The translations under genes were made by a program, and so were the position numbers. Source: a virus (Duplodnaviria > Heunggongvirae > Uroviricota > Caudoviricetes). From it: a stretch of 64,000 bases of DNA. The first letter of the stretch is position 1. The number at the start of each line of letters is the position of its first letter. Location of the stretch: the IMG/VR virus record IMGVR_UViG_2609460125_000009. The stretch is one strand, 5' to 3'. Below are positions 35,236 to 42,344 of this stretch, in pieces. The notes beneath the pieces are model-generated. The model searched no databases. It was not told the origin of the DNA and saw only the letters and a list, made by a program, of their open reading frames with translations.

Positions 35236-35505
35236 GAATTATGGCGCTTGTTGAGGAAGTCACTCCTCTTACGCACTTTGTTTTGCCATGCCGGCAGTTA
35301 GCTTCTGCCTTTGACTATTCATGCGGCAACCCCGCATTTCGCCACAATGGGCAATTCACTTTTATGGAATAAACTGGCCGTTGTGTCGATTTAATTAGCA
35401 TGGCCTTACCATGCTAATTTATTCAACTTGTACAATCCTACAAATCTATCCACTCAGGCTTACACCGTCTTCGTTATTGTAGAAATGAGGATCATCAGCG
35501 TTGAA

Positions 35506-35721
35506 TCAGCTTAGAGCAACGACATTTGCTGCTGCTGGGCCTTTAGCCCCATTCTCGATAGAGAATTCGACCTGCTGGCCTTCTTCCAAAGTGCGGAAAT
35601 TATTACTCTGAATTGCCGAAAAATGTACAAAAACATCTTTACTGCCATCAGCAGGAGAAATAAAGCCAAAGCCTTTATCAGAGTTAAACCATTTTACTAA
35701 ACCAGTCATTTTATTAGACAT
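35506..35721 (-). CDS. cspA: cold-shock protein, CspA family
   Basis: [21 protein letters not shown]...DVFVHFSAI matches the cold-shock domain RNP motifs; ATG at 35721 has an AAGGT RBS, although the ORF is open further upstream. Confidence 0.85.
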
Positions 35722-36050
35722 AGATATTACCTTCTTAATTTTGTGAGCCACATAGTGCGGCGAGAATTTGATCTGTATAGATTGGGACTTACTTAGGCAC
35801 TTAAGGAGGAGACTCACGAAGAAGGGAAATCAGAAGATAACACTGAACTGAGACTGCTTTACTAAAACTGCTTACATAAGGTCTGTCTTGCAAACCAACG
35901 ATGCTATTAACGCATACCCCTTCTTTTCATGCAACCTTTATTTTTCAAAGATAACTAATTTTTGTCACCATTGGTTTAGTAAACGTTAACGAACCAGACG
36001 ATGCCAGACACCTTTACAGAGAACAGATGCCCGCCAATTGGCGGGCATCA

Positions 36051-36650
36051 TTATGCGCATTTCGCAATATCTTTGCGGCGTTTAATCAGTTTCTCCGCAA
36101 TTTGCTCTATTTCGTTGAAATCTTTCGAGACGCTGTTTCGAAGCGCCAGATTCCATTTACTCAAAGTTCGGGCATTTTGGACAATTTGATCGCCCTCTTT
36201 AAGTCGTCCGTTATTCATGAGCCATTCAGCCACATCAGCCCAATCCCAGAGAGGAGACTGGCCTTTTATGCGTTGTACAGGGCAAGGGAAGTCGCCGCTT
36301 CCGCGCTTACCGTCTTTGAGCAACGCCACTGCCTGGCGAGACAGGTCTGTCAGTTCCGCGATATCGCTTAAGCCCACAAGAGCCGAGTCGACGGATTCAA
36401 CAATTGCACCGATACCGGCTGATTCAATATTGTCGACCGCAGATGCGATAGCTGCATCAAGTGATTGTGCTTCGCGGTCAAATTCTACATAGACGGAGTT
36501 TCCATATGCGCAAATTAGCGCATCGTCACAGCCGTTTTGGTACAGCGCGTCTTCCAGTCCTTCCGTCTCATACGATACGCCTGAGAGCGTCAGAGTGAAG
36601 TTATAAAGCGCCATAGTTTTCCTTTGAAGATAGTTGGACAGTTTCTGCAA
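36051..36650 (-). CDS. putative DNA-binding protein with C-terminal AlpA/excisionase-like HTH
   Basis: C-terminal LSRQAVALL...FPCP...WDWADVAEWL resembles the AlpA/Xis-type HTH; N-terminal domain unassigned; start may instead be the internal Met at 36614. Confidence 0.45.
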   Translation of the reverse strand: MQKLSNYLQRKTMALYNFTLTLSGVSYETEGLEDALYQNGCDDALICAYGNSVYVEFDREAQSLDAAIASAVDNIESAGIGAIVESVDSALVGLSDIAELTDLSRQAVALLKDGKRGSGDFPCPVQRIKGQSPLWDWADVAEWLMNNGRLKEGDQIVQNARTLSKWNLALRNSVSKDFNEIEQIAEKLIKRRKDIAKCA

Positions 36651-36674
36651 AAGGCGGCTAATGCCGCCTTGAAA

Positions 36675-36899
36675 TCATTTACAACGATCAACCATTCGTT
36701 TGATCTGTTTGGCATGGTTTTCGGGATTACCCGGAGTCGACCATACGCTCATTTGGTGAGTTTTGTGTTCACCTTCTGGATTACCGCATCGCAGTCTGCA
36801 AAAACAATGTGCAGCACCACCAGCAGCTACCCAGATCCAGCCTTTACTTAATGCATAGTCAATGGCTGCTTGAATATGCTTATTCGGATGTTGCTTCAT
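36675..36899 (-). CDS. hypothetical small Cys/His-containing protein
   Basis: 74-aa ORF immediately upstream of, and co-oriented with, the HTH protein. Confidence 0.4.
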   Translation of the reverse strand: MKQHPNKHIQAAIDYALSKGWIWVAAGGAAHCFCRLRCGNPEGEHKTHQMSVWSTPGNPENHAKQIKRMVDRCK

Positions 36900-37153
36900 T
36901 CGCCTCCGATAATAGTATTCTATTCACAGTGTTGACATCTGTCAACGGCGACTGAATTTCATCCGTTCATGCCACACCACCATCCATCTCATGTATGTGA
37001 CCTAAAGATGGTCAGCACAGCTTACCAAAATAAGACAACTAATTATCTTCGGTGATCTCAATATCTTCCCCTGAACAAAGTTGACATGACGCCATAAACC
37101 CGTTCTCTGTTTGATATAATTGATACAGATTTTATAAGTAGGAACCTATTAGA

Positions 37154-37585
37154 GTGAACACTGATATTTTTTCTAAAATCATGGCCGATCTGGAGTTCGA
37201 CCGCGACAACCTTGAGGAAGTATGGCGTAAACAGCCACGGCTTTTAATGGAGTATGGGTCAAAACTAGCGCAGGCAGATCGAGATGTCGCAGAGGCAAAA
37301 CTTAACCTTGAAGCTGTTGAAGCAAAGCTATACGACACAGAGCGTAAGAACTTGAGTATGAACGGCATTAAGTTCAACGAGTCTGTACTGGACGCTAAGG
37401 TTAAAACAAACCCACAGTATCTGTCTAAACGGCAGAAGTTGGATGAAGCACGGCACATCGCAGACATATACAAACATGCTGTCGCCGCCTTTTCGCATCG
37501 CCGAGACATGATCGTTCAGGCGTCAAAGATGGCCATCGTTGAATTAGAGCGATTAGGCTCTGAACGCTTTATTACTCCCCGTTGA
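37154..37585 (+). CDS. hypothetical coiled-coil protein (recombination/replication accessory position)
   Basis: 143-aa ORF with GTG start after a TTGATA...TATAAG promoter-like sequence; directly upstream of the SSB-like gene. Confidence 0.45.
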   Translation: MNTDIFSKIMADLEFDRDNLEEVWRKQPRLLMEYGSKLAQADRDVAEAKLNLEAVEAKLYDTERKNLSMNGIKFNESVLDAKVKTNPQYLSKRQKLDEARHIADIYKHAVAAFSHRRDMIVQASKMAIVELERLGSERFITPR

Positions 37586-40002: not shown

Positions 40003-40004
40003 TC

Positions 40005-42344
40005 ATGGCAAAAGGAAAATCCGCACTGGCACTTGCTCTGAAAAAGAAAATCGGTAGCAACGACGAAATTCAGAAAGTAACTCATTGGATTGACACAGGC
40101 TTTCCTCCGTTAAACAAAGCTATTTCCGGTCGTTACGATGGCGGTTTCCCATGTGGTCGTATCGTAGAAGTATTCGGGCCACCAAGCGCGGGGAAATGTG
40201 TTACCGCAGACACCATGCTGCTGACGGAGCGTGGAATGGTAACAGTGAAAGAGTTGTTTGAGATTGAAGGGTACAAAGCGACATGCACTACTCGCGATGT
40301 AGAGCATAACGTTGGACTCATCAATGAAAATGGCGTGATAGAGAAGACCTCACACCTGACATGGAACAACCGTCGCAAATTCAAGCGTATTAAGCTGGCA
40401 TCAGGCGGTTATATCGAGGCTACGTTCCGTCACCCAATCCGTGTGGTTGACGACTTAGGTAATGTCGTCTGGCGACATGCTGAAAAAATCAGTGTAGGCG
40501 ACACGATTCCTTCAATGGTTGGCACACATCAATTCGGCGATCAGCACCTGGATGCCAATATCGCAAAACTGATGGGCTATTTAATTGCTGACGGATACGT
40601 GGCCTCTGAAAATTCAGTGAATTTTTCTAACACAGATCCTTTCATCAAGGATGAGTACTACCGCCTCATTTCGCTGGTATCAGACAAGATGCCAGTTACG
40701 AGAAAACATAACGGCTCGGAAGACCATGTGCTGTTTAGCAAAGAGGTGCGTTCGCTGCTTTTTAAAGAATATGGTCTGGAGTATGAGAAAGCTGCTGGCA
40801 AGCAGGTTCCGTTGAGTGTGCGTCGCGCCAATAGCGAGGCTCAAATTGCATTCCTTCGCGGCTACTTTGAGCTGGAATGCCACGTCAATGATGGTCGCTG
40901 CATTGAGGTTGTGAGCGCGAGTGGGCTGCTGCTACAGCAAATTCGCCTCATGCTCCTGAATCTGGGGATTACGTCAACTATCTCTGAAAAACACGTCGCG
41001 GGTTATGAAAATACATATTACCGGCTGTCATTCAGTGGCTCTAATTACGACCTTTTTCTGTCAACGATTGGTTTCGAATCTCCGGCACGTTTATCAGTGG
41101 CAACCAAACGGGACATTGGTTTTGACCGCACTTACTCAGGCTATGTTCCGCACATCAGCGGCTTAGTGAAATCACTCTACGAGTCGCTCACCAAGACCAC
41201 CCGTGAAGACTACGCTCTGGTAGACCACGTTATTGGCCGCGGCGATCGTGTCGGAATAGACAAACTGCGAGAAATCTATGTCTCCTTCATTGGCAGAAAG
41301 AATCGTTTTAACGAGCATCTGTTTGCACAACTGGCAGCGGTAATTGGCTCTAACTTGTTCTACGACGAAGTCGTGGCTATTGAGGAAGGTGAAGCACCAA
41401 CGTTCGACGTAGCGATGCCGGAAACACACTCTTTCTGGTCTAACGGGATTATCAGCCACAACACATTCCTTGCAACAGCAGCGATGATCTCCGCTCAAAA
41501 ACAAGATGGTCTGGCGGTATTCCTCGATCATGAAAACAGTTTTGACGTTGGCCTGGCTGTAGCCAATGGCCTGAACGCAGATGAGGATGACGGTCAGTGG
41601 GTATACAAGCAGCCAGATACCTTCGAAGACTCTGTAGAGTTGATCGGCACAATACTTAAATTGGTTCGTGATGAAGAGCTTATCCCCGAATCAGCACCTA
41701 TCTGTATCGTGGCTGACTCTCTTGCGTCTATGGTTCCGAACTCCAAAGCCGAGAAGTTCGAAAAGATGGCTGAAGGCACAGCCAAAGACAAAGATCAGCT
41801 AAACATGAACGACAATACGGCACTGGCTCGTGCGACGAGTGCGAACTTCCCTACTCTGGCTTTGTGGGCACGCAAATACAACGCCTGCATCATCTTCTTG
41901 AATCAGGTTCGCACAAAAATCGGTGTAATGTTTGGCGACCCTACTACGTCGCCAGGTGGAGATTCACCGAAGTTCTACGCTTCTGTACGTATCCGTCTTG
42001 GTGCATCGGTGATGAAGGATGGTAAAGAGAAGATCGGCCAGGACGTAGGCGCAGAATGCATCAAAAACAAAGTTGCACCACCGTATGGCAAATGCACCTG
42101 GAAATTCTACTTCGATCCTACTCGTGGCCTCGACGTTATCGAGTCGCTCGTCGAGTACATGCTGGAAGAAGGATACCTGCCAAAGAACGCCAGCGGTCGA
42201 GTAGAAATTGGTGACAAGAAATACACCAAATCACAGATCGTCGAGATGTATCGGGAGAAGCCACTAGCTGAAATCATTGCGGCTTTACAGGCAATCGACG
42301 ACCGGAGATCAAAAGACAATCCCACCGAGTCAGTAGAAGAGTAA
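40005..42344 (+). CDS. RecA-family recombinase precursor containing an intein in the Walker A motif
   Basis: N-extein ends GPPSAGK, C-extein begins TFLATAA, so splicing restores GPPSAGKTFLA; the C-extein carries RecA-like core motifs. Confidence 0.85.
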   Translation: MAKGKSALALALKKKIGSNDEIQKVTHWIDTGFPPLNKAISGRYDGGFPCGRIVEVFGPPSAGKCVTADTMLLTERGMVTVKELFEIEGYKATCTTRDVEHNVGLINENGVIEKTSHLTWNNRRKFKRIKLASGGYIEATFRHPIRVVDDLGNVVWRHAEKISVGDTIPSMVGTHQFGDQHLDANIAKLMGYLIADGYVASENSVNFSNTDPFIKDEYYRLISLVSDKMPVTRKHNGSEDHVLFSKEVRSLLFKEYGLEYEKAAGKQVPLSVRRANSEAQIAFLRGYFELECHVNDGRCIEVVSASGLLLQQIRLMLLNLGITSTISEKHVAGYENTYYRLSFSGSNYDLFLSTIGFESPARLSVATKRDIGFDRTYSGYVPHISGLVKSLYESLTKTTREDYALVDHVIGRGDRVGIDKLREIYVSFIGRKNRFNEHLFAQLAAVIGSNLFYDEVVAIEEGEAPTFDVAMPETHSFWSNGIISHNTFLATAAMISAQKQDGLAVFLDHENSFDVGLAVANGLNADEDDGQWVYKQPDTFEDSVELIGTILKLVRDEELIPESAPICIVADSLASMVPNSKAEKFEKMAEGTAKDKDQLNMNDNTALARATSANFPTLALWARKYNACIIFLNQVRTKIGVMFGDPTTSPGGDSPKFYASVRIRLGASVMKDGKEKIGQDVGAECIKNKVAPPYGKCTWKFYFDPTRGLDVIESLVEYMLEEGYLPKNASGRVEIGDKKYTKSQIVEMYREKPLAEIIAALQAIDDRRSKDNPTESVEE
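40197..41462 (+). mobile_element. intein with LAGLIDADG homing-endonuclease domain (422 aa) inside the recombinase gene
   Basis: Begins with Cys (CVTADTMLL, intein block A), ends with His-Asn before the extein Thr; internal LMGYLIADGY and FLRGYFELE motifs. Confidence 0.8.

Follow-up and report, generated by a model that had tools for sequence, protein, structure and literature searches.

We analysed a two-gene cassette, here called A-B, in a 64,000-nt stretch of viral DNA (IMG/VR record IMGVR_UViG_2609460125_000009; the whole stretch is referred to below as the window). The window was 99.9% identical to Escherichia phage Cyrano (OV696614.1) over the 2.3 kb compared. Cyrano is pLF82, a 108-kb SSU5-like phage-plasmid of E. 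coli LF82, with a copy number of ~5.5 (PMC9928086). Both genes of the cassette lie on the minus strand. Gene A (36675–36899; CYRAN_51; PADLOC PDC-M06A; phrog_5923) encodes a Cys/His-rich protein of 74 amino acids (aa), which we consider a putative toxin. Gene B (36051–36614; CYRAN_50; PADLOC PDC-M06B; phrog_2620) encodes a three-domain protein of 187 aa, a putative antitoxin and autorepressor. The Cyrano record names the two products "HicA toxin protein" and "putative antitoxin HicB", and the only names carried by the pair in RefSeq are 'hypothetical protein' and 'helix-turn-helix transcriptional regulator'.

An earlier note, made from the letters of the window without database searches, had described these genes as a minus-strand module beside cspA, lying in a strand-switch island, and had proposed a toxin-antitoxin (TA) or regulatory switch function. 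The two open reading frames (ORFs) were confirmed, the 74-aa ORF at 36675–36899 and the second ending at 36051. The island was also borne out, because three minus-strand genes (A, B and a cspA-like gene) lie between a plus-strand PolIII-alpha gene and a plus-strand UvsY-like gene, and the neighbour is indeed cspA-like, with a CSD domain (E = 1e-33) and a full-length Rfam cspA thermoregulator. The 25-bp gap that the note gave between A and B is true only of a mechanically called TTG start; the real gap is 60 nt. That TTG (36650), which would give a protein of 199 aa, was rejected as the start of B because it sits in the T-run 3′ of a hairpin described below. We instead placed the start at the ATG at 36614, which has an AAGGA Shine-Dalgarno sequence and yields the 187-aa protein with the MALYNF N-terminus found in every homologue.

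The two adjacent, co-oriented small genes form a single unit with its own promoter and terminator, which is the layout of a type II TA operon. The sigma-70 promoter of A-B (36917–36945, minus strand) matches the consensus at 11 of 12 positions, with a −35 hexamer TTGACA (36945–36940), a 17-nt spacer and a −10 hexamer TAGAAT (36922–36917). This architecture was kept across 80 anchored loci; in the comparison of loci, a TAnnnT −10 element stands 17 nt after TTGAC(A). The earlier note had placed a divergent promoter region with a palindrome at 36900–37130; promoter and palindrome are both present, but the promoter lies ~20–50 nt 5′ of the A start codon and is not spread over that interval. An intrinsic terminator (36026–36049, minus strand) with a 10-bp stem, eight pairs of which are GC, lies directly 3′ of the B stop codon. 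A scan for an internal promoter serving B detected no sigma-70-like sequence inside A at the scan threshold.

The palindrome reported in the earlier note, GTTGACATCTGTCAAC, was confirmed at 36931–36946. Its general form, GTTGAC-N4-GTCAAC, is a candidate operator that overlaps the −35 hexamer and the promoter spacer. Among 105 non-redundant loci the palindrome was perfect in 81, with spacings from the start codon that clustered at 44–48 nt; its centre was free (39 different central tetranucleotides) and the flanking bases were almost uninformative. Within the 64-kb window the sequence had a single match, even with two mismatches allowed, and judged from the window alone it was not statistically remarkable once mismatches were allowed. 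We therefore give the palindrome weight because it is conserved across loci, not because it is unique in the window. The spacer of a sigma-70 promoter requires no particular sequence. The right arm of the palindrome is invariant even though it falls in this spacer, which argues for an operator. The candidate operator was still present at loci that lack gene A. We infer from its position and conservation that B would regulate its own operon at this site.

Sequence features also bear on the translation of A. A Shine-Dalgarno sequence, GGAGG (36903–36907, minus strand), read from the sequence and from an upstream alignment, stands 3 nt from the ATG of A, and a short spacing of 3–4 nt was kept across loci. 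In an Enterobacter hormaechei phage-plasmid (locus L002, 5996–6003) the called start codon of A is CTG instead of ATG, and an in-frame TTG lies two codons upstream. The non-ATG start in that copy and the short spacing together suggest, at the level of sequence, a deliberately weak translation of A.

The interval between the genes contains a GC-rich RNA hairpin (36651–36670, minus strand) with the sequence AAGGCGGC-ATTA-GCCGCCTT, which starts 4 nt after the A stop codon and is followed by TTTT. The predicted fold had a free energy of −16.1 kcal/mol (z = −2.9). Counting a hairpin when its uninterrupted stem reached −8 kcal/mol or lower, we found an equivalent in 53 of the 71 loci whose intergenic gap measured 30 nt or more; a T-rich tail followed in 20 of the 53. 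In a hairpin subgroup of 17 sequences, 97.9% of the cells were paired and compensatory double changes occurred in 8 of 11 pairs. None of 500 shuffles reached the observed values, and controls in which the position was slid dropped to 41–56% pairing. Conservation of the hairpin is thus structural and not at the level of sequence; Rfam holds no family for it. We consider it a candidate attenuator or mRNA-stabilising element. RNA sequencing (RNA-seq) of the LF82 lysogen described both genes as autonomously expressed 'morons', with A at 30 times and B at 14 times the prophage background (PMC9928086). This difference fits an active promoter combined with partial termination or processing at the hairpin.

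We then compared the distribution of the two genes. Both A and B have many relatives, which occur on shared contigs; for A alone there were 664 representative clusters at E ≤ 1e-3. An A-anchored search of loci, run with a closer alignment of A, showed a same-strand B homologue directly downstream in 53/53 viral contigs and 80/80 metagenome contigs, such that none of these 133 loci had A without B. The pairing also held at a distance, as in a metagenome pair whose A was ~44% identical to the A of the window and whose B matched the B profile at ~40% identity (hhalign probability 99.9%); the genes of this pair overlap by 4 nt.

The reverse search, anchored on B and restricted to one genome per species, gave a different result. 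A was found upstream of B in 75 of 80 species, and in the other five it was deleted cleanly or down to a few codons, whereas the promoter, the palindrome and B were all kept. The orphan-B loci were L026, L030, L052 and L053 among the B-anchored genome loci, and also L031. Remnants of A could be read at two of them: L026 retains MKK fused to the Shine-Dalgarno sequence of B, and L053 retains MKKHPNKEIQ followed by the hairpin. Two further loci, L141 and L225, carry a broken A (a pseudogene) beside an intact B. This asymmetry, in which A is lost and B is kept, would be expected of an A that does harm when B is missing.

The cassette recurs in unrelated surroundings. In phage-plasmids of the SSU5 type, namely SSU5 and those of Enterobacter hormaechei, it occupies the same slot, flanked by genes for replication and recombination; in Prodigiosinella it is part of an integrative island, where a RelE module and integrases are its neighbours; and it is solitary between housekeeping genes in the chromosomes of Providencia, Klebsiella/Raoultella and Silvania. 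In the Prodigiosinella island (L006, 4332–4998) the cassette is ~2 kb from a pair encoding a RelE-like toxin and an HTH_3 antitoxin (weakly MqsA-like), from an ORF with a Cas12f1-like TNB domain and from several integrase fragments, illustrating how TA modules can cluster on one such element. Chromosomal copies inserted alone between housekeeping genes are seen at L025 (4765–9933) and L081 (4210–7936). The Silvania/Leclercia cassette stands between cheZ and flhB, and that of Klebsiella/Raoultella/Scandinavium between folB-like/epimerase and GNAT/ABC-transporter genes, a syntenic site common to many species. Homology between the Cyrano copy and the chromosomal and island copies ran from ~25 nt upstream of the palindrome to the end of B, and these limits indicate a mobile unit of ~0.9 kb. 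In E. coli the cassette was present in 110 of 5,426 complete genomes, always on plasmids of ~95–115 kb.

We sought evidence on what A might be from its predicted structure and from profile comparisons. The AlphaFold model of A (pLDDT 87) had an alpha-beta-beta-(short helix)-beta-alpha topology, which agrees with the alpha1-beta1-beta2-beta3-alpha2 arrangement, resembling a double-stranded RNA-binding domain, that characterises HicA. Sequence comparisons were far less clear. A had no HicA match in Pfam or NCBIfam at E ≤ 1, and 0 of 126 diverse relatives matched PF07927 at E ≤ 0.1. A sequence-profile search of A against the PDB and a Foldseek search of the model against the PDB each returned nothing significant and no HicA. 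Alignment of the A family to HicA (4, then 124 sequences) by hhalign gave weak local matches only, with probabilities of 13–37%; the best of these (37%, P = 3.5e-4) aligned the helix1-GW-strand1-GSH segment. In this weak match, H31 of A falls one residue off the catalytic His24 (GW...GSHH) of B. pseudomallei HicA, and H31 shows little or no variation across the A family. It belongs to a conserved Cys/His set made up of H4, H31, C38, H45/H48 (Cys in the wider family), H62 and C73, often with a C-terminal C-x-H. The earlier note had proposed a remote-homology search of this 74-aa protein, which yielded PADLOC PDC-M06A and the weak local HicA profile match, but nothing from Pfam, NCBIfam or the PDB. 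We concluded that A probably has a HicA-like fold, as judged from the model, and that it falls outside the sequence definition of the HicA family.

The AlphaFold2 model of B (pLDDT 91) consisted of three parts: an N-domain (residues 1–75), a winged helix-turn-helix-like (HTH-like) domain (~79–134) and a C-terminal helical hairpin (143–186). The N-domain is ferredoxin-like in the model, with a beta-alpha-beta-beta-alpha-beta order (strands 2–11, 32–37, 40–49 and 71–75; helices 20–26 and 52–64). The middle part consists of a helix-turn-helix, a long conserved loop and a third helix. Foldseek results for the whole of B were dominated by the N-domain and comprised weak, generic ferredoxin-like or ACT folds only, and no sequence relative in the PDB was significant for either the whole protein or the N-domain. 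Against PDB profiles, the HTH domain found only weak matches to generic HTH motifs (E = 0.25–1). Scans of A and B against Pfam and NCBIfam also returned RuBisCO_small and CagE_TrbE_VirB, which were below threshold and were set aside as spurious.

The earlier note had called B AlpA-like, from an HTH pattern (FPxP...WxW..V..WL) that it placed at the C-terminus. The pattern is present, but it is central, within the HTH domain, and two long helices follow it. The AlpA-like label held only as a weak resemblance: residues 71–150 matched the PHROG excisionase families 66 and 2790 (E = 2e-4 and 1e-3), but Pfam Phage_AlpA (PF05930) did not match B, and 2 of 29 relatives reached E = 0.039. B shares with the AlpA/excisionase group (PF05930; PHROGs 66 and 2790) the motif L..ia.l.glSr....l...g.FP.P.......W.W..V..WL. 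It differs by a 5-residue insertion (KRGSG) in the turn before FPxP and by having the HTH embedded between two other domains; in addition, the cassette is unlinked to integrases in most contexts.

Shorter forms of B occur naturally and show which of its parts is constant. Forms of ~150 aa lack the C-terminal helices, forms of ~85 aa consist of the N-domain alone, and all of them directly follow an A homologue. Examples are L149 (4117–4527) and L219 (651–971), which both encode the N-domain only, as well as L143–L147 and L199–L214. Because the N-domain is kept in every variant of B, it is the constant partner of A. From this pattern, the N-domain is likely the neutralising domain.

The sole clear family assignment for the cassette came from PADLOC-DB. 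A matched PDC-M06A (E = 1.2e-19, six models) and B matched PDC-M06B (E = 1.3e-32). Both models match adjacent genes, and PDC-M06 has the same order, A then B, so that we regard it as the same system. PDC-M06 is one of 145 'phage defence candidates' obtained by guilt-by-embedding; it corresponds to cassette CAS_00046 (FAM_01986>>FAM_01364), which is embedded in known defence systems and has 497 occurrences (Payne et al., bioRxiv 10.1101/2024.01.29.577857). In the literature library searched, no paper mentions PDC-M06. The entry is a catalogue candidate without phenotype, mechanism or structure, and the copy in the window differs from it in lying on a phage-plasmid and not embedded in a host defence system.

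Comparison with HicAB showed a mixture of likeness and difference. Like hicAB, the cassette is a bicistronic operon, putatively toxin-first, with a palindromic operator (here a candidate) in its own promoter. A resembles HicA in being small (~60–75 aa), in its alpha-beta-beta-beta-alpha order and in a conserved His after the first strand, and B resembles HicB in joining an N-terminal, putatively neutralising domain to a predicted DNA-binding domain, with minimal variants that lack the latter. However, no HicA (PF07927) or HicB hidden Markov model (HMM) matched A, B or their relatives. A has the extra conserved Cys/His set, and the predicted DNA-binding domain of B is a winged HTH of AlpA/excisionase flavour, not an Xre-HTH or ribbon-helix-helix domain, and is followed by the extra C-terminal helical hairpin. 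HicB itself is a partial RNase H fold, and the classes sampled in Gerdes' paper pair HicA with such a HicB; searches of that paper gave no instance of HicA with an AlpA-, MerR-, excisionase-type or ferredoxin-like partner. We concluded that the HicB label of the Cyrano record is wrong at both the fold and the HMM level, and that the HicA label holds at the fold level only; the naming of the pair in that record has a thin basis.

The higBA and mqsRA operons provide a second comparison. In both, the toxin gene precedes the gene for a DNA-binding antitoxin, the operon is autoregulated at a promoter palindrome, and operons of this type secure an excess of antitoxin via internal promoters. A-B has the same putative toxin-first order and the palindrome in its promoter. 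In contrast, no internal promoter was detected in A-B, and a covarying, often terminator-like hairpin lies between the genes instead.

The earlier note had proposed a TA or regulatory module that carries its own palindrome and promoter. This proposal is supported: strict pairing, asymmetric loss of A, the operator candidate, recurrence in different contexts, expression and the match to PDC-M06 all fit a TA-like autonomous cassette. With a probability of roughly 55%, we read the region as an autonomous, autoregulated type II TA-like cassette, made up of a divergent HicA-fold toxin and an antitoxin of new architecture, and as the same system as PDC-M06. What we infer for A-B, from toxicity and its neutralisation to DNA binding, RNase chemistry and a biological role, would then fit together as follows. 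A would be the growth-inhibiting component, with a HicA fold and a His at the HicA catalytic position, and would probably cleave or bind RNA. B would be the antidote: its ferredoxin-like N-domain would bind and neutralise A, and its winged-HTH-like domain would bind GTTGAC-N4-GTCAAC over the −35 hexamer and repress the operon. The hairpin, the short Shine-Dalgarno spacing of A and the CTG/TTG start of the Enterobacter copies may tune the ratio of A to B. Carried on Cyrano and expressed in the prophage state, the cassette would most likely keep the plasmid stable through post-segregational killing, keep out other phages through abortive infection, or do both.

Several results weigh against reading A-B as a TA cassette of this kind. 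The HicA signal in A is marginal. B does not have the HicB fold, and neither B, nor 29 of its relatives, nor 30 diverse N-domains matched HicB or HicB_lk_antitox HMMs. That B outlasts A at some loci could also be seen if B were useful as a regulator by itself. A covarying, often terminator-like hairpin in this position would favour A over B mRNA, in line with the 30-fold and 14-fold RNA-seq values, which is the opposite of what a classical TA operon needs; such a hairpin between putative toxin and antitoxin genes, together with the ~2-fold excess of A mRNA, is unusual for a classical TA system. Finally, a defence-island context was not found at the chromosomal loci examined, which weakens a role in defence.

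This last point bears on the alternative that survives best, namely that the cassette is primarily an anti-phage abortive infection system. A second infecting phage would set A free or activate it, growth would stop before the invader matures, and in Cyrano the cassette would be a superinfection-exclusion 'moron'. Such a function overlaps with the TA mechanism, and differs from it in the function that is selected. In its favour are the assignment of both proteins to PDC-M06A/B, a cassette that has 497 occurrences and is known from within defence systems, expression from the prophage independently of lytic genes (PMC9928086), and presence on phage-plasmids and, next to a RelE module, on an integrative island; HicA domains in general have been proposed to act in defence (Gerdes). 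However, the PDC systems were graded as candidates by their own authors, the literature search for PDC-M06 was empty, and the chromosomal copies examined were solitary between housekeeping genes and outside defence islands. We consider a primarily anti-phage function possible, and clearly less probable than the TA-like reading.

In another alternative A is a toxin, but not an RNase of the HicA type. A could be a small Cys/His protein that binds metal and acts on another target, with a resemblance to HicA that is convergent or generic. The conserved Cys/His set of A is absent from canonical HicA, no HicA HMM matched A, and the Foldseek search was negative, all of which speak for this reading. 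On the other side, the GW...H motif of A aligns with the GW...GSH region of HicA, and the toxin-first gene order is that of hicAB. On balance a toxin that is not a HicA-type RNase seems unlikely. The last alternative is a purely transcriptional pair. B would control genes of the phage-plasmid or island in the manner of AlpA and excisionases, and A would be a small cofactor of B or an anti-regulator that modulates it. This reading draws on the PHROG family of B and the SSU5 annotation (AlpA-like excisionase/regulator), the weak excisionase PHROG matches (E = 2e-4 and 1e-3), the persistence of B without A in five species and an excess of A mRNA that would suit a modulator. We disfavour this 'regulatory switch' and judge it the least probable of the readings. 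No palindrome is conserved other than the one in the promoter of A-B itself, and the 64-kb window contains no second copy of it; cassettes that are solitary between housekeeping genes have no integrase or prophage there to regulate; Pfam Phage_AlpA misses B (2/29 relatives at E = 0.039); and forms of B that lack a DNA-binding domain are still found with A.

The genes on either side of the cassette gave further observations. The cspA-like gene (coding sequence 35506–35712, minus strand) carries a thermoregulator 5′ leader (match at 35481–35899; RF01766, score 185.7 bits, gathering score 78), and because it has its own full-length thermoregulator leader we consider it a separate transcription unit. 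A sigma-70-like promoter stands at 35968–35940. At the DNA level this gene shares 77–84% identity with the csp genes of 2H10, Tritos and other lambdoid phages of E. coli; since other SSU5-like elements have no cspA-like gene at this slot, it looks like separately acquired cargo. On the other side, the divergent neighbour annotated as UvsY (37154–37585, plus strand) strongly matched phrog_2058, a family of unknown function. Its match to a UvsY-like PHROG was weak (E = 1.9e-4) and it had no Pfam match, so that the UvsY label is soft.

Two further observations concern the E. hormaechei SSU5-like plasmids. Those at L002–L005 encode a 780-aa RecA that contains an intein with a LAGLIDADG domain. Because the RecA of Cyrano (CYRAN_55, ~40004–42343) has the same length of 780 aa, it probably contains an intein too. 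The PolIII-alpha gene of the E. hormaechei plasmids is split by an HNH/NUMOD4 endonuclease gene, whereas that of the window is uninterrupted.

The A-B pair was already public, as HicA/HicB in the record of one phage and as a PADLOC candidate, and the TA idea is therefore not new. New here are the three-domain architecture of the putative antidote with its ferredoxin-like partner domain, the definition of an operator candidate and of a covarying hairpin, and the quantified asymmetry between pairing and loss. We suggest, more tentatively than the possible anti-phage function above, that PDC-M06 may be a distinct TA/defence family, and that phage-plasmids of the SSU5 group may use the cassette both for plasmid addiction and for aborting infection by competing phages. 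SSU5-like phage-plasmids are common in clinical Enterobacteriaceae. If A-B is a working TA system, it would help to explain how these low-copy prophage-plasmids persist, and it might explain the exclusion of other phages. It would also extend the TA repertoire by a toxin of HicA fold whose antidote is not HicB, and would give a first mechanistic handle on one of the 145 PADLOC candidates.

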